Below are positions 1 to 37,346 of a stretch of 64,000 bases of DNA, in pieces. Source of the DNA: Dictyostelium discoideum (taxonomy: Eukaryota); NCBI GenBank assembly GCA_000004695.1, contig CM000154.2:3680001-3744000 (forward strand), written 5' to 3'. Every line of letters starts with the position of its first letter. The stretch's first letter is position 1. The position numbers were made by a program, and so were the translations under genes. Under the pieces are notes generated by a model. The model searched no databases and was not told the origin of the DNA. It saw only the letters and a list, made by a program, of their open reading frames with translations.

Positions 1-1247
1 ATTTTATGTAATGGATTCAATCAAAAATTAACCAAAGGTATAATACCAGAAAGTGTTAAAGAGTTACGTTTAGGTGATATAAAACAAGAATTAATTATTG
101 ATTCAATTCCTAATACTGTAACAACTGTTACTTTATATAATGGATTCAATCAAAAATTAACCAAAGGTTTAATTCCAAAAGGTGTTAAAGAGTTGTATAT
201 AAGTGATATAAAACAAGAATTAATAATTGATTCAATTCCTAATACTGTAACAACTCTTATTTTATTTGATGGATTCAACCAAATATTAACCAAAGGTATA
301 ATACCTGAAGGTGTTAAATTGTTGTATATAAAGTGTTAAAGAGTTACATATAGGTGATATAAAACAAGAATTAATTATTGATTCAATTCCTAATACTGTA
401 ACAACTGTTACTTTATTTGATGGATTCAATCAAAAATTAACCAAAGGTATAATACCAGAAAGTGTTAAAGAGTTGTATATAGGTGATATAAAACAAGAAT
501 TAATTATTGATTCAATTGCTAGTACTGTAACAACTGTTGGTTTATATAATGGATTCAATCAAAAATTAACCAAAAGCATAATACCTGAAGGTGTTAAAGA
601 GTTGTATATAGGTAATATAAAACAAGAATTAATTATTGATTCAATTCCTAATACTGTAACAACTGTTACTTTATGTAATGGATTCAATCAAAAATTAACC
701 AAAGGTATAATACCAGAAAGTGTTAAATTCTTACGTTTAGGTGATATAAAACAAGAATTAATTATTGATTCAATTCCTAATACTGTAACAACTGTTATTT
801 TATGTAATGGATTCAATCAAAAATTAACCAAAGGTATAATACCAGAATGTGTTAAAGAGTTAGATATAGGTGATATAAAACAAGAATTAATAATTGGTTC
901 AATTCCTAATACTGTAACAACTGTTACTTTATGTGATGGATTCAATCAAAAATTAACCAAAGGTATAATACCAGAAAGTGTTAAATTATTACGTTTAGGT
1001 AATATAAAACAAGAATTAATAATTGGTTCAATTCCTAATACCGTAACAACTGTTAGTTTATGTGTTGGATTCAATCAAAATAACCAAAGGTATAATACCA
1101 GAACGAGTTAAATTGTTACATTTAAGTTATATAAAACCAGAATTCATAATTGATTCAATTCATAATACAACAACTGTTAGCTTATTAGAACGTTTTAAAA
1201 TCAATTATCTCGAAAGTATAATTCCAGAGGGTGTTAAATTAAATTAA
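1..1247 (+). pseudogene. FNIP-repeat protein gene, C-terminal part entering from upstream of the window; reading frame broken twice (possible pseudogene, or repeat-collapse/sequence error)
   Basis: About nine tandem 132-bp units, each encoding about 44 aa of the form GFNQKLTKGIIPESVKELYIGDIKQELIIDSIPNTVTTVTLCN (Dictyostelium FNIP repeat, LRR-like). Frame 1 is open 1..336. A partial 22-nt duplication (aagtgttaaagagttacatata, about 323-344) shifts the frame into the long ORF 473..1111. A 5-nt deletion (aatta missing, about 1078-1083) shifts into ORF 1062..1247, which ends at TAA 1245-1247. Confidence 0.55.
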
Positions 1248-3215: not shown

Positions 3216-5745
3216 ATGACAATAAAAAATAATATTTTAGTTATTGGTAGTGGTAGTAGAGAACATGCAATTACATGGAAATTATTAGAATCTAATCAAG
3301 TTGATAAAGTTATATTAGTACCAGGAAATGCATCAAGTTCAACAATGGAAAGAGTTATAACAGTTGAATGTTCAAAAATTGATGCAGAATCAATCTCAAA
3401 CATTTGTAAAGAACATAATGTGGAATATGTATTTGTCGGACCAGAGGTACCATTAGTAGATGGTATAGTTGATGGATTAAAAAGAAAAGGTATCTCTTGT
3501 TTTGGTCCAACCAAAAAAGCTGCACAATTAGAAGGTTCAAAAGTATTTTGTAAAGATTTTATGGCAAGAAATAATATTCCATCTGCACGTTATCAAACTT
3601 TTACTGATTATAATAAAGCAAAACAATATATTGAATCTTTAAATTATAAAATTGTGTTAAAGGTAAATATATTAAAATAAATAAAAATAAATATAAAAAT
3701 ATTATTATTAATAGTAATTTTATAATTTATAATTAATTAAAAAGGCATCTGGATGTGCAGCAGGTAAAGGTGTTTTAATACCAAATAATAAAGAAGAAGA
3801 ATTAGAAGGATTAAAAAGAATTATGGTTGATAAAGAATTTGGTAGTGCAGGTGATGAAATTGTAATTGAAGAATTTTTAGATGGTGAAGAATGTAGTTTA
3901 ATGTGTTTTTCCGATGGTTATAGTTTAGTAGTTATGCCACCAGCACAAGATCATAAAAGAATATTCGATGGTGATAAAGGTGCCAATACTGGTGGTATGG
4001 GTGCATATGCACCAGCACCATTCATTGTAGACTGTAACAATAATGCTACCACTGATAAAAGTAAATCAAAGAGTTCATTTGGTACAATTATTGATCGTTG
4101 TGTTGAAACCATTTTAAAACCAACAATTAATGGAATGAGAAAAGAGGGTAAACCATTTGTTGGTGTTTTATTTGCAGGTTTAATGGTATCATCATCATCA
4201 TCAACAACCAATGATAAAGTTATCAATGTTTTGGAATTCAATTGTCGTATGGGTGATCCAGAGACTCAAGTAGTTTTACCATTGTTAGAGACTGATCTAT
4301 TTGAAATTGTATTGGCATGTATTGAAGGTCGTTTAGATGGATTGGATGTAAAATGGTCAAATAAGTTTGCAGTAACTGTTGTTGCCGCTTCAAAAGGTTA
4401 TCCAGATTCTTATCCAAAAGGTTTGAAAATTAATGGTTTATTAGAGAATAAAAATACAAATGATAATATTATTTTTCAAGCTGGTACAACTGTAAATGGT
4501 AGTAATGATATTGTTACAAATGGTGGTCGTGTTTTATCATGTACATCGGTATCGGAGTCATTAGAAGATGCAATAAAGAATTCATATAAATTAATTGAAA
4601 CTATTAGTTTTGAAGGTATGCAATATCGTAAAGATATTGGTCAAAAAGCATTAAACCATTTGGAAAGAAAGAAGCAACAACAAGCCAATTCAAAACAATC
4701 TGTATCCTATAGTGAATCAGGTGTTGATATTGAAAGAGGTGATGCTGTAGTTGATAATATTGGACCATTGGCAAAAGCAACCACTAGATTGGGTTGTGTT
4801 AGTGATTTGGGTGGATTCGGTGCATTATTCGATACAAAAGCAGCAGGATTTAGAGATCCAATTTTAGTATCAGGTACTGATGGTGTTGGTACAAAATTAA
4901 AGATTGCACAAGAACTTGGAATTCATGATAGTATTGGTATTGATTTGGTAGCAATGTGTGTCAATGATGTAGTTGTTCAAGGTGCAGAACCATTATTCTT
5001 TTTAGATTATTTCGCCACTGGTAGAATTCATGTAGATGTCGCAACTCAAGTTGTCTCTGGTATTGCACGTGGTTGTAAAGAATCTGGTTGTGCATTAATT
5101 GGTGGTGAAACAGCAGAAATGCCAGGAATGTATAAAGATGGTGAATATGATTTAGCAGGTTTCAGCGTTGGTGCAGTTGAACGTGACCAAATGTTACCAT
5201 CAAACATTCAAGAGGGTAACATTCTATTGGGTCTTGCATCAAGTGGTGTTCACTCAAATGGTTATTCATTGGTTAGATATTTAATTGAAACCAAGAGTGG
5301 TGGTTTAACTTATAATTCAATTGCACCATTCGATTCAAGTAAAACACTTGGTCAAGTATTATTAACACCAACTAAACTCTATGTATTATCTTGTCTTGCA
5401 GCAATTAAAAGTGGTGGTGTAAATGGTTTAGCTCATATCACTGGTGGTGGTATCACTGAGAATTTACCAAGGGTAATTCCAGATGGTTTAGATTGTGAAG
5501 TTGAATTGGGTAGTTGGGAAATTCTTCCAATCTTTAAATATTTAGTTGAACTTGGTAATATGGAAACTGAAGAATTATTAAAAACTTTCAACTCTGGTAT
5601 TGGTATGATTTTAATTGTTTCACCTGATAAAGTTGATTCAATCACTAAATCTTTAGAATCAAATAATGAAAAAGTTTATAAAATTGGTAAAATTATAAAT
5701 TCAAAAACTTCAAAACAATCAAAATCAAAAGTAATTTATAAATAA
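3216..5745 (+). CDS. purD: Bifunctional phosphoribosylamine-glycine ligase / phosphoribosylformylglycinamidine cyclo-ligase (GARS-AIRS), 2 exons
   Basis: Exons 3216..3662 and 3745..5745, with an 82-nt AT-rich intron (gtaaat...aaaag). The N-terminus MTIKNNILVIGSGSREHAITWKL and GDEIVIEEFLDGEECS are GARS ATP-grasp motifs. The C-terminal half has AIR-synthetase motifs (GGFGALFD, VAMCVNDVVVQGAEPLFFLDYFATG, LAHITGGG). There is no GART domain. Confidence 0.9.
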
Positions 5746-5749
5746 ATAA

Positions 5750-5783
<34 letters not shown>

Positions 5784-5882
5784 TGCATTTTAATAAAAAT
5801 AATAATAATAATAATAAAAATAAAAATAATAAAAGAGATAGTTTATATTTTAAAAAATAAATAAATAAATAATTTTTTTTTT

Positions 5883-7136
5883 TTATTTTCTTTTATTTAG
5901 TAATCCATCTAAAATTTTTTTTTTTTTTTTAATATTTAACGAAGTTGTTGAAGTTGTTGTTGTTGTTGTTGTAGTTGAAGTTGAAGTAGTATTATTATTA
6001 TTATTTGAAGAAGTTGTAGTTGTAGTAGTTGTTGTTGTCGATACTAATGAAGATAAATTTGAAATTGAAGTTGAAGTTGTTGAGGTTGTTTGAATTTTAT
6101 TACAATTATTATTAAAATTTGTTGTTGTTGGTATTGTTGTTGGTTTATAATAATTATTAAAATTTTGATTTATTTTTAAAAGATTTGAAAATTCAATTAA
6201 TTGATCATCTTTAAATTGGTTACCATCTAATTCAAATGATTGAATAATTTTATTATTATTAAAAATTGATAAAATTGATTGATAACATTTTTTAATTGAT
6301 TGTTCAGAATTTAAAGATTGATCTAATAAATTATTAAATGAAATATTTAAACCGGTTAAAGTTGAATTATAATTTTCTAATGAGTTTGAAATTGAAATTA
6401 ATGAATTTGACAATAAATTATTAAAACTTAAATCTAAAATTTCTAAAGATTTATTTTCTTTTAGCATTGTTGAAATTATTAAACCAACATTATTATTATC
6501 AATATTATTATTATTATTATTATTATTATCTAAATCAGAAATATTATTATTTCTTAATAATAATTGTTTTAAATTTGATTGATTATTAATTTTTAAAGAA
6601 TCCATTAATTGTTTACAACCAATTGATTGGAAATTATTATCAGATAAATCTAAAATTTTTAAATTTGAATTTTTTAATAACATATTTGAAAAGTCAATTG
6701 AAACATCATCACCATTAAATAAATTATTTGAGAGATAACAATATTCTATGGTAGTGTTATGAATTAAACTATTTGATAAAGAAATACCAGTTTCTTTTGA
6801 TAATTGATTATAAATTAAACTAATTGTAATCAATGATTTATTATCTTTTAATGCCGATGCTATCTTTTCACCAGATTCATCATCCAATTTCAAATAATTT
6901 AAATGAAGTGATGTAATTGATTTTGTATAATAAATCAATTCAAATAATGACATATTAAATGGTTTACCAAATGTATTATGACTTAAATTTATAGATTTCA
7001 AAGTTTTATTATCACCAAGATTTCTAATTGCATCAATCATTTTTGAATTAATTGAAATTGATGATGGTGATGATGGTATCCAATTTGCACTTGAAAAATG
7101 AAAATCATTACCACTACCAACCATCATCCAAGAATG

Positions 7137-7169
<33 letters not shown>

Positions 7170-8453
7170 TGTTGATGGTGGTGTACCTAATAATAATGAA
7201 TTAAAATTAAAATTACCACCATTAAAATTACCACCATTACCAATATTATTATTATTACTATAATTACTATTATTACTTAATGAATTTGTAATATTAAAAT
7301 TATTTGTTGAATTATTATTTGGACTATTTAATGATAATAAATTAATATTAAATCCATTTGATGATGATGATGATAATGATAAATTTATATTATTATTATT
7401 AACTTGTAATAATGTTGTTGATGATGATAAATTATTATTATTATTATAATTATTATTTATAATTGTATTATTTGTATTTGTATTTGGTGTTAATGGTGGT
7501 GACGATAATGAAAAATTTTGAACCATACAATCTAATCTACAAACTGCTTCTAAATTTATATTTGTTATTGAATGATTTTTATGTAAACCTTCAATTATTG
7601 CTTTTAAACCAGATATTTTAAATTCATTGAATGATAAATTTAAAATTTTTAATGTATGATTATGACGTAATGCATCACCAATTAAAATACCATCCTTTTC
7701 ACGTAAAAAATTTCTTGATAAATTTAAATCTGTCAATACATTATTATTTTTTAATGAAGAGATAATAATTGATGAACCATTTGAAACTAAATCTAAATTC
7801 ATTAATTCTAATTTCGTTATTGAATATTGTTGACAATTTATCAAGATTTCACTAATTCTTTCACCGAAATTTCTTTCATTATCTAAACAATAATTTACTA
7901 AACTTATAGTTTGAATTGTGGTACATTGATTTAAAAATTGTTGTAATTTACCATTGGTAATTTGATATGAATTATTTCTAGGTGTACCAATTACAATTGA
8001 TGTACTTTTAATTAAATTATTATTATTACTACTATTGTTTTTTGATGATGATGATGATGATGAACAAAATGAATTTGAAGATGAATTTGAAGATAAAGAT
8101 GAGGATGATGAAGATGTATATGGTTGTGGTTGTTGTCTTGTTATATAAATATCTGTAAATTTACATTCTCTACCATTTGGAATTAATGGATTGGTTGCTA
8201 ATTGTAATATTTTTTCAAAACTTGAATGTTTAAAAAAACAAAAATGATATGGTACAATTTGTGATCCCCATTTTTTACAAACTAATGATAATTTTATTAA
8301 ATTATATAATGTTGGATCATCTTGACTATTCTTTTCAATAATTATTGATATAATTGTATTTGGTAAATTATAAATTATTGTTTTTTTTTGATTTTTCATT
8401 TCTTTATTTAAAATTTTATTATTATTATTATATATAATATTATTACTTAACAT
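5883..8453 (-). CDS. F-box-like / leucine-rich-repeat (RNI-type LRR) protein, single exon, 856 aa
   Basis: N-terminal LPNTIISIIIEKNSQDDPTLYNLIKLSLVCKKW resembles an F-box. Multiple about 28-aa RNI-like LRRs follow (LTDLNLSRNFLREKDGILIGDALRHNHTLKILNLSFNEFKISGLKAIIEGL; LDLSDNNFQSIGCKQLMDSL; LEILDLSFNNLL). Long poly-N/S/T tracts are present. Confidence 0.8.
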
Positions 8454-8731
8454 AAATTTTTTTTTTTTTATTTCTTTTAAATTTTTTTTTTTTTTTTTTT
8501 TTTTTTAAAATTTTATTTTAAAAAATTGGTATATTTATTTTAAATGATTTAAATTATTTTTATTATTATTGGTTTTATTTTTATTGGGACAAATAAATAG
8601 GAGTTATTATTTTAACTATTATTACAAATTAATATTTTTTTTTATTTTTTTTATTAATTTGTTTATTTTTTTTCTAATGACAAAAAAAGTAATAAGGAAA
8701 AGTAATAAGGAATGTAATAAATTTTATTATT

Positions 8732-8769
<38 letters not shown>

Positions 8770-9212
8770 TTTTGTTTTGTTTACTTTTGGCACAAAACCA
8801 CCCTAAAAATAATTAAACAAGTAATCAAAAAAAAAAAAAAGGAAAAATTATAATTATCCAAAAATTAAAAATTTAATTAAAAAAATGTTTTCCCCCCCTT
8901 CCAATTAAATTAATTTTAAGTTTTTTTTTTTTTTTTTTTCATCCCATTTTTAAAAAAGGAAAATTTGATAATTTCGGTGGAGGTTTTAAAAAAAAAAAAA
9001 ATTTAATTTTAAAAAAAAAAAAAAAAAAAAGGTTAAAAAAAAAATTTAAAAAAATTTTTTTAAAAAATAAAAAAAATTTTTATTTAATAATTTTTTAAAA
9101 ATAAAATTTAAAAAAAAAAAAAACAATTAAAAAATATTATTTTTTAATTTAAAAATATTAAAAAAAAAAATGAAATGATGCAAACACACATAAAACACAC
9201 ACTTAAAAACCA

Positions 9213-9248
<36 letters not shown>

Positions 9249-9347
9249 ATTTGGAAATCAAATATTTTAAGAATATGTGTTTAGTGAAAAAATGTTAGTA
9301 GTATAAACAATTGGATTTATTTATAAATTTTTATAAATTAAAAAAAG

Positions 9348-9382
<35 letters not shown>

Positions 9383-9896
9383 TTAACCAAAATACCTTAA
9401 AAACTTTAATTTTTTTATTTGATAACAAATTAATTTTCTTTTTTAAAATTATATTTATTTTATCAAAGAAAATTTTTTTTTTTTTATTTTTTTTACTTCT
9501 TTTTTTAATTTTAAAATTATGTTTATATTATTAAAATAAATTTTTTTTTTTTTTTTTTTTTTCCTTTTTTTCTTTAAAGATTTGTATAAATATTTATTTT
9601 GCAACAAATAACGACAATATTTTAACTGTATGTTTCTATTTATAACTTTTTTTTTTTTTTTTTTTTTTTTTAATTTTTATTTTTTTTCAAAATATCTCAA
9701 TTGATTTCTTTGAAAATATTTCTAAAAAGTTTTTTTTTTAATTTTTATTTTTATTTTTTTTTTTATTAAACAAAATTGCTTTGACAATTTTAATTCAATT
9801 TTTTTTAATTTTTTTTTTTAATTTTTTTTTTTTTTTTTTCTAACTCAAAATTAAAAAAAAATAATTTAAAGGATTTCTAAAAATTTTGAAAATTGT

Positions 9897-12063
<2,167 letters not shown>

Positions 12064-12216: not shown

Positions 12217-13170
12217 TTATTGTTTATTTAAATTCATTAAAAGGTTACCACTAGTTGGTACATAAGTAACTTGTTTTGATTTTGATAAAGATTCAGTGAT
12301 ATCTTTGTAAGCTTCAATACGACGTAATTCAATGAAAGCAGCACTATTACCCATAGCTTGACCAATAAGTTTTGCAGCTTCAGCTTCACCTTCAGCTCTA
12401 ATAATGTTTGCTTTTTTCTCTTGTTCATTTTTCATTACAATATATTTTGAACGTTCAGCTTCTTGTTGAGCAACTTGTTTATGTTCAATTGCATTTGTAA
12501 AATCTTGTGAAAAACTAAGATGTGTAATTGAAACATCATCTAATAATAAATTAAATTCTTTTGCTCTTTTCATTAATGATTCACGAATTTCTTTTGATAC
12601 AACTTCTCTTTGTGTAATTAATTCTGTTGCATCATATTGTGCCTTTTATTTTATTTTATTTTATTTTATTTTATTTTATTTTATTTTATTTTATTTTATT
12701 TTATATATATATATAAAGTATTAATGATATGATGTGATATATGATATATTGAGTGATTGAGATTGAGATTGATTACTTACAACAACAGATTTTAAAACTT
12801 CATTTCCAAGTGATGGTAAAATTCTTTCATCATAATCTAAACCTAATTTACTAAAGATTGATGGAAGATGTTCAACATCTGGTCTAAATAAAACACGAAC
12901 TGTGACACTTACAGTTTGAAGATCTTTACTACCAGTATCACTCTTTATGTTTCTTGGTGATGATCTAATATCGAAAATGATTGGTTTTTGTAACCATGGC
13001 ATAATGAAATGTGTACCTTCTCCAACTGATTTCTCTTTAACACCACTAATTCTATCGAAAATAACTGCTCTTTGTCCACCATCAACTGTATACATTGAAC
13101 TTTGTGCTAATGATAAACCAGTACCAACTGTAAGTGCAAGTGGTATAAGTTTATTTAAAAATGATTGCAT
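12217..13170 (-). CDS. phbA: Prohibitin (PHB1-type), 2 exons
   Basis: Exons complement 12781..13170 and 12217..12642. The 138-nt intron (donor gtaagt) contains an (ATTTT)9 microsatellite. The protein is about 271 aa and aligns throughout with prohibitin-1 ([37 protein letters not shown]). Confidence 0.9.
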
Positions 13171-13575
13171 CTTTTGTTTTGATTTTGAAACTTTTTATTG
13201 AATAATTATTATTATTATTATTATTATTATGTGTTTTATAAAGTTGCTATGAAAATTTATTAATAAATTTTTTTTTTTTTTTTAGAAGATGAATTTGAAG
13301 TGGAAATTAAAAAAATTAAAAATTAAAAAAAAATAAAAAATAAAAAAAAAATAAAAATAAAAAATTGGATGTGCGTAATTCCAACTTGTCAAATTCATCT
13401 CAAAAAAATTATTAATATTTATGTTATTCTTTAAAAATTTATTTTTAGTTTGTTTAAATATTTTAAAATAAATAAAATCATGATTAATTTACAAAAAAAA
13501 TTAAAATTATTCCAAGTTTATAAATAAATGAAAAATCGTAATTTATTTAAATATTAATTTTTAATTTTCATCAAA

Positions 13576-13648
13576 GCCCGTTTAGCAAAGTTGGAATTGC
13601 GGCAGCCTTCTAAGCTGCAGGTCGTGGGATCGAGACCCACAATGGGTG
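13576..13648 (+). tRNA. tRNA-Arg (anticodon UCU)
   Basis: Folded by hand. Acceptor gcccgtt/aatgggt (two G-U pairs). D stem gcaa/ttgc with loop agttggaa. Anticodon stem gcagc/gctgc with loop cTTCTaa (U33, anticodon TCT, purine 37). 5-nt variable loop. T stem gtggg/cccac with loop atcgaga. Discriminator G. Total 73 nt, followed by T-rich run ctttttaaa (pol III terminator). Confidence 0.75.
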
Positions 13649-13677
13649 AAACTTTTTAAAGGTGTACCAATAATGGT

Positions 13678-13695
13678 CGCAGGTTCGATGTCATA
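13678..13695 (+). promoter_or_regulatory. External B box (ex-B) downstream of the tRNA gene
   Basis: gcaggttcgatgtc matches the GGTTCGANNC B-box consensus about 35 bp 3' of the tRNA. Extra downstream B boxes are a known feature of Dictyostelium tRNA genes. Confidence 0.45.
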
Positions 13696-13699
13696 TTAA

Positions 13700-15077
13700 A
13701 TCCAATTTATGTAAAGATCTTGGAAACGACCCTTATGGTCATCTCTTTATTGTAAAAAAAAAAACCACAACAACACTACTTAAACCGCACCGCGATCAAG
13801 AGGATACAAGATACACGTGAAAAGTAATTCATCCTTTTCTATCCTTAATCTCGGTCAATTTTAACCAATCTTTCAAAAAAAATCACCAATCCACCACGAT
13901 CTACAGATCTAACTTACCAAATCGCCGATTCAAAGGAATCCCATCGAGATGAATTCCTACGCAGACGCGGCTAAAATGGCCAACCCCTCCACCCATATGG
14001 ACGAGGCATCAGAGAACTTCATTAAGGAATTCTCCACAAAAACAGCAGAGATAAAGGAGACCTACCCCAAATTATCAATAGGCCTCAAAGACATCTCCAA
14101 ATACTGCGAGACCATATTGAACATGACTGCTCTCTCAACCTACGAGAAAAACAACGGATTCTACCCAATTACACTCGAATTCCCCAAAATGGATCTCATG
14201 GGGTTAGAAGAAATGAGAAAAACACTCTCAAACTACGATATCCCAATCGACAAGATATACATAGGCAAAGGAACTAGAAAAACGATCCACCTGATGATTA
14301 AAAACGAACAATCTCTCCTAAATATCATTAGAGATAGAAGCAAATTGGGAACCTTCATCACCTCCAGTAGAGACTACCACGTCCTCACAGGAAGAGTAAG
14401 AATTCCAAGAGAAAAGGCAGGAATAGTGGACGCCCTCATCAAAACTGCCTTTGCAGAAGAAATACCCTATGCAATATACCATACTATATACTCCACCGAC
14501 CACCTCCTAGTATTCGGTCTAATAGAATGCAAAATAGGCGATCAAATGAAATCTGGCCAACACAATACAGAAATCGCCAACTTTACCATCAGAACGGCCA
14601 CCAAAACCTACTCCTCACAAAAGAAAAATAAGAAAGTAGAGTCAAACAACACGGAAGAACCATTAGAAGATGAGATGACAGATGATCCTCCCAACATCCA
14701 AAACAGGATAGCAATCAAATCCTCTCAACCAAAACCACAACAACAAACAAACAACNNNNNNNNNNNNNNNNNNNNNNNNNNNNNNNNNNNNNNNNNNNNN
14801 NNNNNNNNNNNNNNNNNNNNNNNNNNNNNNNNNNNNNNNNNNNNNNNNNNNNNNNCTTCAACGATCAAGCTAAGAAAAACAACAGCTAATTACTATTGTA
14901 TTCCAGAATCATCTCTCCCAAATATTATATCTTTTGATCAATTCATATGATTAAAATAACCCTTCAGCTTAAATGATAAGCCTTTAAATAAATATTAAAT
15001 AAAACTCGTATTAACACAGATGGACATATATCAATCTTGTTAATCTAATATTAAAAAAAAAAAAAAAAAAAAAAAAT
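13700..15077 (+). mobile_element. tRNA-gene-targeted non-LTR retrotransposon (TRE3-like position, downstream of a tRNA), 5' part plus 3' end with poly(A); interior lost in an assembly gap
   Basis: A sharp composition switch begins about 60-120 bp downstream of the tRNA: GC-richer sequence with C-ending codons (atc, acc, ctc) unlike host genes. ORF 13949..14755 (MNSYADAAKMANPSTHMDEASENFIKEF...) runs into a 100-N gap at 14756-14855. After the gap about 200 bp of non-coding sequence ends in poly(A) 15053-15077. An internal A12 at 13753-13765 suggests a nested or earlier truncated insertion. Confidence 0.55.
14756..14855. other. Assembly gap (100 N) inside the retroelement
   Basis: Run of n. Confidence 1.
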
Positions 15078-15826
15078 ATTGTAAAAAAACATTAGAATTT
15101 ATAAATAAAACTATTAATGGACAAACAATAAAAAAAAAAAAAAAAAAAAATATTGTTATTCCATAAATAGTCTCCTTTGACCAATTAATTATATTGTAAA
15201 ATAATTTCATTATTTAATTTATCTATTTAATTCATTTAATTTTACCAACATATTTGAAACTGGATCTTAAAAAAGAAAAAAATAATTATTATAATTAGAA
15301 TAATACACTATATTTTAAAATTAAAATATAATGTAATTATTTTTAATTTGTAAAGTTTACTTTTTCCCCAATTTTTTTTTTTTTTATTTATTTCTCAATT
15401 TCCTAATACCTTTGAAAACTATTCCTTTTTCAAGTGTATTAATTAGTGGGGAATAATTAATAAAAACTATTTCTTTTTCAAATGTATCTAATTACACTGG
15501 AAAAAAAAAGAAATTAATAAATTTTATTATAAACAAATAAATTTAGTTATATACGTGGATGATTCCACAAAATAAATTGACGAAATTAGGATGGATTTTT
15601 CAGTTTTAAAAAAAAAAAAAAAAATTAAAAAAAAAAAAAAAAATACAATAATTTTTACGTGGAAAATTCTAAATAAAATAATTAATAAAAATTTAAATTC
15701 ATACTTAAAAAAAAAAAAAATAAATAAATAAAAAAAAAAAGAAATTTTAATTTCCAAAGAAAATTAATATCAGTCCTTTTACCAAAATTTTTTTATTTTC
15801 ACTTTTTTATTTTTTTTTAAAATTCG

Positions 15827-20825: not shown

Positions 20826-22135
20826 ATGGACAGTAATTTAATTAATTGGCTAAAAAAGTGTTCTGAATCTATATTAGATTCTCTGATAATAATTTCAAGG
20901 AATGAAATATTTATATCAAAAGAAAATCTTATTGATTTTTGCAAATCAAAATGGTAAAATATATATATTTATGTTTAAATAAAAAAATAAATAAATAAAT
21001 AAATAAATAATTTTAATATTTATTAACTATAATTATAAATTTTAAATAAAAAAAAAACAAAAATTTAAAGTTATAAAAAAATTGGATTAGGTGAAGATCA
21101 ATTTAGATTATTAAAAAATGAAATATCAATATCATTAGAAAATCATTTTAGAAATGAAAATGAATTAATATTATATAAATATGAACCCGTTAAAGAAATA
21201 AATTTAAAATTTGAAACAACAATTAGAGAATTGATTGAAAATAATATAAAATTAAATCAAATGAGGTTTATTAAAAATAATAATGAAAATAATGAAAATA
21301 ATAATAATAATAATAATGAAAATAATAATAATAATAATGAAGTTAGAATTGATTTAAATAAATATATTCAAAATGGTAATGATAATAATAATAAAAATAA
21401 TAATATTAAAGAAGATTCAGAAATTCAAAAACCAAATAATGAAATTTTAGTTATTGAATTAATACCAAGAAAATGTGATTCCTATTTTTATTATGAAATT
21501 CCATTAATAATTGCAGGTTGTATGACAGCAAAAGAATATTCAAATTTTATTAAAACAATTAATAGAGCCTATAGTGGATATTGGATATTATTTTTAATTT
21601 ATTCTTCGTATGCAATTTCAATTTTAGCCATTGTAATAACAATACCATATTACAAAGCATTTCCAATTTGGTTAATATTTTTTGGTGCAATGATTTTATT
21701 TTCAATATTTCTTTTAATTTATAGATTATTTTTAAGAGTAATTATTAAAAAAAAAGAATTTTTTATTTTTATTTCTATTTAGTTTTTATTTTATTTTATT
21801 TTTATTTTGTATATTAATCAATTTTTAATTTAAATAATAATAATAATANNNNNNNNNNNNNNNNNNNNNNNNNNNNNNNNNNNNNNNNNNNNNNNNNNNN
21901 NNNNNNNNNNNNNNNNNNNNNNNNNNNNNNNNNNNNNNNNNNNNNNNNATAGAAAATTATTGAAAAATCAGTACCACTTGAATTTCATATTGTTTATAAA
22001 AAGAAAAAGTTCCCTCAAACTAAAAATACAATGACAATGATAATTCACTATTTTTATAACTCTAAAAATACAAATGTTACAAATAATATTTACAATGAAG
22101 AATCTCAAATGAAAATTAATGAAATTGATGTTTAA
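20826..22135 (+). CDS. Hypothetical two-TM-helix membrane protein, paralog A of a tandem triplet, 3 exons
   Basis: Exons 20826..20953 (phase 2), 21071..21737 and 21953..22135; intron 2 contains the 100-N gap 21849-21948. N-terminus MDSNLINWLKKCSESILDSLI. The central exon has an asparagine-rich segment and two hydrophobic helices (YWILFLIYSSYAISILAIVITIPYY; IWLIFFGAMILFSIFLLIY). The C-terminal exon is KIIEKSVPLEFHIVYKKKKFPQTKN... Confidence 0.55.
21849..21948. other. Assembly gap (100 N) in intron 2 of paralog A
   Basis: Run of n. Confidence 1.
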
Positions 22136-34853: not shown

Positions 34854-34953
34854 NNNNNNNNNNNNNNNNNNNNNNNNNNNNNNNNNNNNNNNNNNNNNNN
34901 NNNNNNNNNNNNNNNNNNNNNNNNNNNNNNNNNNNNNNNNNNNNNNNNNNNNN
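34854..34953. other. Assembly gap (100 N)
   Basis: Run of n in AT-rich intergenic DNA. Confidence 1.
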
Positions 34954-36193: not shown

Positions 36194-36293
36194 NNNNNNN
36201 NNNNNNNNNNNNNNNNNNNNNNNNNNNNNNNNNNNNNNNNNNNNNNNNNNNNNNNNNNNNNNNNNNNNNNNNNNNNNNNNNNNNNNNNNNNNN
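36194..36293. other. Assembly gap (100 N)
   Basis: Run of n. Confidence 1.
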
Positions 36294-37246: not shown

Positions 37247-37346
37247 NNNNNNNNNNNNNNNNNNNNNNNNNNNNNNNNNNNNNNNNNNNNNNNNNNNNNN
37301 NNNNNNNNNNNNNNNNNNNNNNNNNNNNNNNNNNNNNNNNNNNNNN
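37247..37346. other. Assembly gap (100 N) flanked by A-run and (AAT)n
   Basis: Run of n. Confidence 1.

Follow-up and report, generated by a model that had tools for sequence, protein, structure and literature searches.

A full-length non-LTR retrotransposon of the TRE3 class, most probably TRE3-A, downstream of a tRNA-Arg(UCU) gene of Dictyostelium discoideum

The tRNA-Arg gene and the inserted element

The window analysed here is a stretch of 64,000 nt from Dictyostelium discoideum (GenBank assembly GCA_000004695.1, contig CM000154.2, positions 3,680,001 to 3,744,000 of the forward strand), with a GC content of 21% and five assembly gaps of 100 N each. It carries a tRNA-Arg(UCU) gene and, 99 nt downstream and in the same orientation, what is very probably a full-length non-LTR (long terminal repeat) retrotransposon of the TRE3 class, in the LINE-1 clade, with TRE3-A as the most probable subfamily. 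The tRNA gene and all parts of the insertion described below lie on the forward strand, and positions are those of the window unless another locus is named.

A single tRNA gene was called by ARAGORN in the whole window, at 13576–13648, with the anticodon TCT at 13609–13611, as had been read from the sequence in the initial annotation. The Rfam tRNA model (RF00005) matches this interval over its full length with 59.2 bits, compared with a gathering score of 29 (E = 9.6e-12), and all stems have standard pairs, so that the gene looks functional and is not scored as a pseudogene. The A box lies at about 13583–13594 and the internal B box, GGATCGAGACC, at 13627–13637, and the gene is identical in five orthologous or paralogous copies. 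A T5 run at 13653–13657, seen directly in the sequence, is read as the RNA polymerase III (Pol III) terminator of the tRNA gene, following general Pol III biology.

Past the T5 run, 33 nt from the tRNA end, is the second B-box-like sequence that had been noted at a distance of about 35 bp. This sequence, GGTTCGATGTC (13682–13692), has one mismatch to the pattern GGTTCRANNCC and is a candidate external B box (exB). External B boxes of D. discoideum are found about 41 bp downstream of 66% of tRNA genes and have the motif GTTCRAnYC (Siol et al. 2011, PMC3159450). The position of the candidate fits these published sites and its GGTTCGA core is perfect. The core CAGGTTCGA is unchanged at the orthologous loci of three other isolates and behind one paralogous tRNA-Arg(TCT) gene, while the spacer around it has diverged. 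The candidate is preceded by GGTCGCAG, giving GGTCGCAGGTTCGATGTC (13673–13692), which resembles a tRNA T arm and includes the GTC signature described for tRNA-internal B boxes (Siol et al. 2011, PMC3159450). Possibly the exB derives from the 3′ half of a former tRNA gene.

The insertion is bordered on its left by a copy of the 13 bp sequence TATTGTAAAAAAA (13748–13760), which is followed by four more A and 17 nt that are specific to this copy, CCACAACAACACTACTT (together 13761–13781, the 17 nt at 13765–13781). The 5′ untranslated region (UTR) occupies 13782–13948 and has 99.3% identity to a full-length copy in another D. discoideum assembly (locus L001, 9834–10000). The first open reading frame (ORF1) opens with the ATG at 13949 and runs for 269 of its 417 codons to 14755, where it is interrupted by the 100-N gap at 14756–14855. 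To the right of the gap are the final 30 codons and the stop codon of ORF2 (14856–14950), their translation, STIKLRKTTANYYCIPESSLPNIISFDQFI*, being the C-terminus of the ORF2 proteins of loci L001 and L002. These are followed by a 3′ UTR of 102 nt (14951–15052; 99.5% identity to L001), a poly(A) tail of A24 (15053–15076) and, directly 3′ of the tail, the right copy of TATTGTAAAAAAA (15077–15089). The open frame of at least 269 codons and the terminal A run had both been noticed before, the latter as A25, one residue too long. An internal A12 placed at 13753–13765 is likewise present as a run but is an A11 at 13754–13764.

As had been remarked, the block differs in composition from its surroundings: it has a GC content of 38–45% compared with about 13% in the intergenic flanks, and 36% of the ORF1 codons end in C, compared with 3–10% in three host genes close by (prohibitin, S28 peptidase and WD40). 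No Pfam domain was found in the 269-codon part of ORF1, and an AlphaFold2 model of ORF1, made from an alignment of six sequences, was uninformative, with a mean predicted local distance difference test (pLDDT) score of 36. ORF1 is 99% identical to a D. discoideum protein of 417 aa (P0001), the 90% identity cluster of which has 37 members, and the homology search with ORF1 also gave several D. discoideum paralogues and one relative from D. citrinum. The cluster and the further paralogues indicate that ORF1 belongs to a repeated element and not to a single-copy host gene, in agreement with the initial reading of the frame. One further match, P0004 (DDB_G0289071), is 100% identical over 152 aa and was considered as the window's own gene model; since its number lies a long way from that of phbA, the gene next to the tRNA gene in the window, P0004 may instead be another copy of the element.

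The orthologous locus was located in five other assemblies (L002, L003, L004, L010 and L011) with the prohibitin protein as an anchor, and one of them, L002, supplied the hidden part of the element. L002 is a gap-free D. discoideum locus that shares the junction sequences of the window, carries the same insertion (the ungapped copy at 4163–9389 of L002) and is 99.1% identical to the window on either side, over 11.7 kb to the left and 4.4 kb to the right. The last window base before the gap (14755) corresponds to L002rc 12539 and the first base after it (14856) to L002rc 16596, so that the 100 N stand for exactly 4056 bp, the same number that is predicted from L001. The gap hides ORF1 codons 270–417 and ORF2 codons 1 to about 1204. 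The 3′ end of ORF1 is therefore concealed as had been supposed, but the reverse transcriptase frame is not concealed in full, the last 30 codons being visible. The gap represents 4056 bp of intact retrotransposon, and ORF predictions made across it are artefacts.

In L002, both frames are open, ORF1 with 417 aa and ORF2 with 1234 aa, and the final base of the ORF1 stop codon is also the first base of ORF2, which is in the -1 frame; the same overlap is found in L001 (ORF1 10001–11254, ORF2 from 11254). ORF2 matches the Pfam families RVT_1 (residues 524–771, E = 1e-33) and Exo_endo_phos (residues 8–253, with the whole profile spanned, E = 0.0017), and a Cys/His motif, CPLCKEDMSKDPYGHLFFSC (CPLC...H....C), can be read directly near its C-terminus. 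The best relatives of ORF2 among solved structures are human LINE-1 ORF2p (E = 2e-50, residues 312–820). ORF2 is thus read as a LINE-1-like protein in which an AP-type endonuclease and a reverse transcriptase are combined with a Cys/His motif. The intact frames in the gap-free L002 show that the copy behind the tRNA-Arg gene is full length and potentially mobile, and it is one of the few TRE3 copies that could still move.

The same element is found behind other tRNA genes. In L001 (gap-free D. discoideum assembly GCA_054883475.1), an element of 5227 bp lies 100 bp after a tRNA-Ser(AGA) gene, and in L008 one lies 90 bp behind a tRNA-Phe gene. The orientations of tRNA gene and element agree at each locus (+/+ in the window, L001 and L008; -/- in L002). 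The 5′ side of the window element (13782–14755) has 99.3% identity to the first 974 bp of the L001 element and its 3′ side (14856–15052) has 99.5% identity to the last 197 bp, and five further copies in the fetched loci are 98.6–99.3% identical. Head-to-tail tandems of the element are present in L007 (2653–11883) and L009 (1–10282).

Several of these loci showed additional features. At 6660–15077 of L008, a copy of the element is followed by a different endonuclease/reverse transcriptase element. An identical 5.2 kb copy is found in L007 and in L008, with the same coordinates in both loci, as if a segment had been duplicated. Between the tRNA-Ser(AGA) gene and the full copy of L001 (9780–9830) is a 38-nt piece of the 3′ UTR that stops short, at ...CGTATTAA, with A12 behind it. 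The piece is a tiny truncated insertion in tandem with the full copy.

Class and subfamily of the element

The presence of TRE3 elements behind tRNA genes of Dictyostelium has been known since the 1990s, and a tRNA-gene-targeted retroelement (TRE) accompanies 61% of the tRNA genes of D. discoideum. TRE3-A is the commonest of the TRE3 elements; 13 of its 67 copies are intact. The insertion is therefore a known kind of element in a well-annotated genome, and its identification matters little beyond annotation.

TRE3 elements are reported to integrate 40–150 bp downstream of their target, in the same orientation, the distance being relative to an internal or external B box (PMC5911963), and for 60 copies of TRE3-A the observed distance is 14–228 bp (PMC5006619 Table 1). 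Their ORF2 is in the -1 frame and combines an endonuclease with a reverse transcriptase and a zinc finger (PMC5911963; PMC5006619); in TRE3-A this frame is relative to ORF1 (PMC5911963). The window element has the two frames, the poly(A) tail, target-site duplications that vary between copies, the ORF2 domain order, the distance, the orientation and the -1 frame of this class, and the initial proposal of a tRNA-gene-targeted element of the downstream, TRE3, class was borne out by its position and orientation. The assignment to the class is near certain. In the window element, integrase and RNase H domains and LTRs were looked for and not found.

The full element is about 5.23 kb, with a body of 5227 bp and a short 5′ A run, in the order 5′ UTR, ORF1, ORF2, 3′ UTR and poly(A). 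The consensus lengths of TRE3-A, TRE3-B and TRE3-C are 5229, 5279 and 4734 bp (PMC5006619 Table 1). The element is also of high copy number, its ORF2 cluster having 79 members and its ORF1 cluster 37. Length and abundance make TRE3-A (formerly Tdd-3) the likely subfamily. Other shared features are the two-ORF, non-LTR organisation with poly(A), the endonuclease, reverse transcriptase and zinc finger of ORF2 in the -1 frame, the co-oriented position about 100 bp downstream, the occurrence of tandems at occupied tRNA genes, and the standing of TRE3-A as the TRE3 lineage with the most copies. No conflict with TRE3-A was found; the window copy differs in having 17 extra nt at its 5′ junction.

TRE3-B, -C and -D share the class, target region, orientation and ORF2 architecture of the window element, and the TRE3-B consensus exceeds the length measured here by just about 50 bp (PMC5006619 Table 1), so that one of these subfamilies could be considered instead. 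It is unlikely to be the source: a body of 5227 bp plus the 5′ A run fits 5229 bp far better than 5279 or 4734 bp, the partial consensus of TRE3-D (1559 bp) does not fit either, and the large clusters agree with the abundant TRE3-A, whereas a relative with 58% identical ORF2 (P0009) is in a single-member cluster. The sequence of P0009 shows that a second, rarer TRE3-like lineage exists, and P0009 probably represents one of TRE3-B, -C and -D, clearly distinct from the TRE3-A-like element of the window.

More distant systems differ in sequence, position or mechanism. TRE5-A (DRE) is a non-LTR element of the L1 clade in the same host and is also targeted to tRNA genes via the Pol III apparatus, but TRE5 elements are oriented against the tRNA gene and lie about 50 bp upstream of it, while the window element is downstream and co-oriented, and its ORF2 is 30% identical to that of a TRE5-like protein (P0010). 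Human LINE-1 ORF2p has the same succession of AP-endonuclease and reverse transcriptase, and LINE-1 likewise uses poly(A)-primed, target-primed reverse transcription with duplications; in contrast, LINE-1 is without tRNA-gene targeting, and the window ORF1 has no detectable similarity to L1 ORF1p. The LTR retrotransposons DGLT-A and Skipper-2 (DGLT-P) do not correspond to the window element, which lacks LTRs and integrase. Skipper-2, a chromovirus, shares the target region downstream of Dictyostelium tRNA genes, but has gag, pol, an integrase and a diverged chromodomain, and is unrelated in sequence and mechanism.

The P0010 ORF2 is from locus L006 (4952–10972), where it lies upstream of another tRNA-Arg(TCT) gene, in the opposite orientation, and fragmentary element-like sequence is present downstream of the same gene.

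Junctions and repeated integration at the same site

Runs of at least 12 A or T occur about once every 340 bp in the window and, because they are so common, a poly(A) run alone is no evidence of an insertion; homology and duplications count instead. The left junction reads ...CTCTT TATTGT A11 CCACAACAACACTACTT AAACCGCACCGCG... and the right junction ...AATATT A24 TATTGT A7 CATTAG...ACAAT A21 TATTGT TATTCC.... The sequence TATTGT is found at 13748–13753, after the poly(A) tail (A24 and TATTGT, 15053–15082) and once more at the end of a second A run (A21 and TATTGT, 15130–15156), and so both of the duplicated junctions pointed out in the initial annotation are present. The 13-mer TATTGTAAAAAAA on both sides of the element is its target-site duplication. 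It starts 99 nt after the tRNA end, with the element body 112–133 nt after that end, and the insertion point is 55 nt past the exB.

Three other copies have clean target-site duplications of 9–10 bp (AGATTTGGA, ACGAGAATT and TAATGCATA). The 3′ end of the element is at the same base, ...AATATT, in seven copies, and every compared copy ends with a poly(A) run, the length of which varies from 19 to 41 nt. At the 5′ end, the four other copies compared begin with A(7–11)CCGTACCG, also given as A(7–11)CCGTACCGCGATCAAG, and lack the 17 nt CCACAACAACACTACTT, which among the fetched loci occur only in the orthologous L002. These 17 nt are read as extra nucleotides added at the 5′ junction, as the comparison of copies suggests.

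A 15-mer at the 5′ junction, AAAACCACAACAACA (13761–13775), is identical to a stretch within ORF1 (14731–14745). The identity could hint at template switching during completion of the 5′ end, but this explanation was not accepted, as CAA-rich strings are common in the genome and the 15-mer has nine one-mismatch matches elsewhere in the window.

Between the right copy of TATTGTAAAAAAA and the third TATTGT lies a short sequence of 40 nt (CATTAG...ACAAT, 15090–15129), here called fragment X, with the A21 run directly after it (fragment and run together 15090–15150). Both are missing from L011, an orthologous locus that is unoccupied. There, the empty site ...AATTTGT|TTTTCCATGAATAGTATCGTTTGACCAATTA aligns with the window sequence ...TTATTGT|TATTCCATAAATAGTCTCCTTTGACCAATTA after removal of 13754–15156. 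In a global alignment to L011 the score is 98 when this whole interval is removed and 67 when only the full-length element is taken out. Because colinearity with L011 is restored only when fragment X is removed as well, the alignments indicate that fragment X and A21 are also inserted DNA and that TATTGT is single-copy in the unoccupied site. The structure of this segment suggests that fragment X is probably the remnant of an older, severely 5′-truncated poly(A) retroelement at the same site. The third TATTGT (15151–15156) is read as the right-hand duplication of that older insertion.

TREs that integrate at an occupied tRNA gene are known to form TRE–TRE tandems (PMC5391098; PMC5006619 Table 1 footnote and supplementary Table S2 note). 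The arrangement at the tRNA-Arg gene, with a 13-bp duplication and a second, poly(A)-ended remnant sharing TATTGT, supports the sequential integration that had been suspected from the repeated junction, and would illustrate both the re-use of a site and the formation of such a tandem.

The two poly(A) tracts might also be explained by a single event in which transcription of the source copy ran past the polyadenylation site of the element and 15077–15150 was carried along from the adjoining DNA as a 3′ transduction, with a second poly(A) at its end and a 6-bp duplication of TATTGT. This would account for both tracts at once, and would agree with the absence of significant similarity between fragment X and the 3′ end of TRE3. 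It is nevertheless quite improbable: the transduced flank would have to start by chance with the TATTGT of the target (roughly 1 in 1000 at this base composition), the 13-bp match of TATTGTAAAAAAA is closer than 6 bp to the 9–10 bp duplications of other copies, and the distal sequence (TATTGTAAAAAAACATTAG...) does not follow the poly(A) in any of the five other copies examined.

Insertion of the element can be pictured, by analogy with the established biology of non-LTR elements, as target-primed reverse transcription. The ORF2 endonuclease would nick the bottom strand at 13747/13748, reverse transcription would be primed from this nick on the poly(A) tail of the element RNA, and a staggered nick in the top strand 13 bp away would give the 13-bp duplication. 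Placement at about 100 bp would follow from recognition of the Pol III factor complex, that is, TFIIIC on the internal or external B box, as in the TRE literature. In the simplest history, the same nick would have been used in two events, the first leaving a 5′-truncated poly(A) element with the duplication TATTGT, and the second placing a full-length element between this remnant and the tRNA gene, with the duplication TATTGTAAAAAAA, to give a TRE–TRE tandem.

A number of points weigh against parts of this interpretation. The candidate exB differs from the published GTTCRAnYC motif at its two last positions, and targeting of TRE3 through TFIIIC and the exB would apply here by analogy. The Exo_endo_phos match of ORF2 is under the Pfam curated cut-off (18.6 compared with 24.5 bits). 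The subfamily is taken from length and abundance only, and in the databases the ORFs carry no other name than 'hypothetical protein'. The similarity between fragment X and the TRE3 3′ end is not significant, as 129 of 3000 genomic 40-mers score as well. The empty alleles belong to isolates with about 10% divergence and do not tell which of the two insertions came first.

Two related sequences were noted in this connection. A 25-nt match to fragment X, with 92% identity, lies downstream of the other tRNA-Arg gene in L006 and is not terminal there. The TRE3-like relative in L005 breaks off short of its 3′ end and so gave no 3′ sequence for comparison.

A broader proposal, namely that the same bond (13747/13748) was used twice by poly(A) retroelements, that the orthologous tRNA gene was independently hit by a Skipper-2-like chromovirus in a sister lineage and that the window copy, being intact and insertionally polymorphic, could be among the few TRE3-A source copies active at present, is a tentative one. 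If it is true, the locus would lend itself to testing how precisely the B box/TFIIIC 'ruler' places the TRE3 endonuclease nick.

State of the locus in other isolates

The prohibitin and S28 peptidase genes that flank the locus are syntenic in the five further assemblies. In three of these (L004, L010 and L011), from the isolates already mentioned, the element is absent and the site is empty. In a fourth (L003, GCA_054859235.1, Dictyostelium cf. discoideum), the orthologous tRNA-Arg(TCT) gene is followed after about 79 bp by an LTR retrotransposon of 5.7 kb (3749–9451), in the opposite orientation to the tRNA. Its LTRs are about 351 bp, the gag and pol frames are open, and the domains found are a gag zf-CCHC, a protease, reverse transcriptase, RNase H and integrase, and a weakly matching chromodomain (22.7 bits). 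It looks like a Skipper-2-like chromovirus. The Skipper-2 copies of strain AX4 have been reported as degenerate (PMC5006619).

From the empty sites in L004, L010 and L011 and the chromovirus in L003, it follows that the TRE3 insertion is lineage-specific, recent and polymorphic, being present in the reference lineage and absent from three diverged isolates. A recent insertion is consistent with the intact frames and with the close identity to the other copies given above. As the insertion is polymorphic among isolates, it could serve as a lineage marker.

These comparisons also dispose of two simpler explanations. That ORF1 is a single-copy host gene beside the tRNA gene, with the poly(A) runs as ordinary AT-rich intergenic DNA, would agree with the frequency of A/T runs in the window and with the lack of a Pfam domain in ORF1, but is refuted by the many near-identical copies at unrelated loci behind different tRNA genes and by the empty alleles, in which the whole block is missing from the orthologous loci, and it is equally at odds with the reverse transcriptase frame after ORF1 and with a codon usage foreign to host genes. 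That the two sides of the gap are different elements or loci wrongly joined in scaffolding, which repeats, as typical sites of misassembly, and the five gaps of the window might suggest, is no more probable and is refuted by the independent, gap-free L002, which is colinear to the left and right of the gap and has a single intact element with the same junctions, as well as by the syntenic flanks; with both frames intact in L002, misassembly is ruled out, and the TRE3-class element is interrupted by the gap just as had first been supposed.

The gene to the left of the tRNA-Arg gene (12217–13170, reverse strand) has two exons, and its translation is identical to prohibitin-1 of D. discoideum (PHB1_DICDI, phbA, DDB_G0290123). 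The remaining four gaps, at 21849–21948, 34854–34953, 36194–36293 and 37247–37346, are flanked by AT-rich, low-complexity sequence and not by retroelement sequence; the first of these gaps corresponds to about 126 bp in the diverged isolate L004. At the left end of the window (3–1179), nine copies of a 129-bp tandem repeat with 80% identity are found in apparent coding sequence. This is probably the gene of a FNIP-repeat protein, because FNIP matches are found at the corresponding end of L003 and L011.

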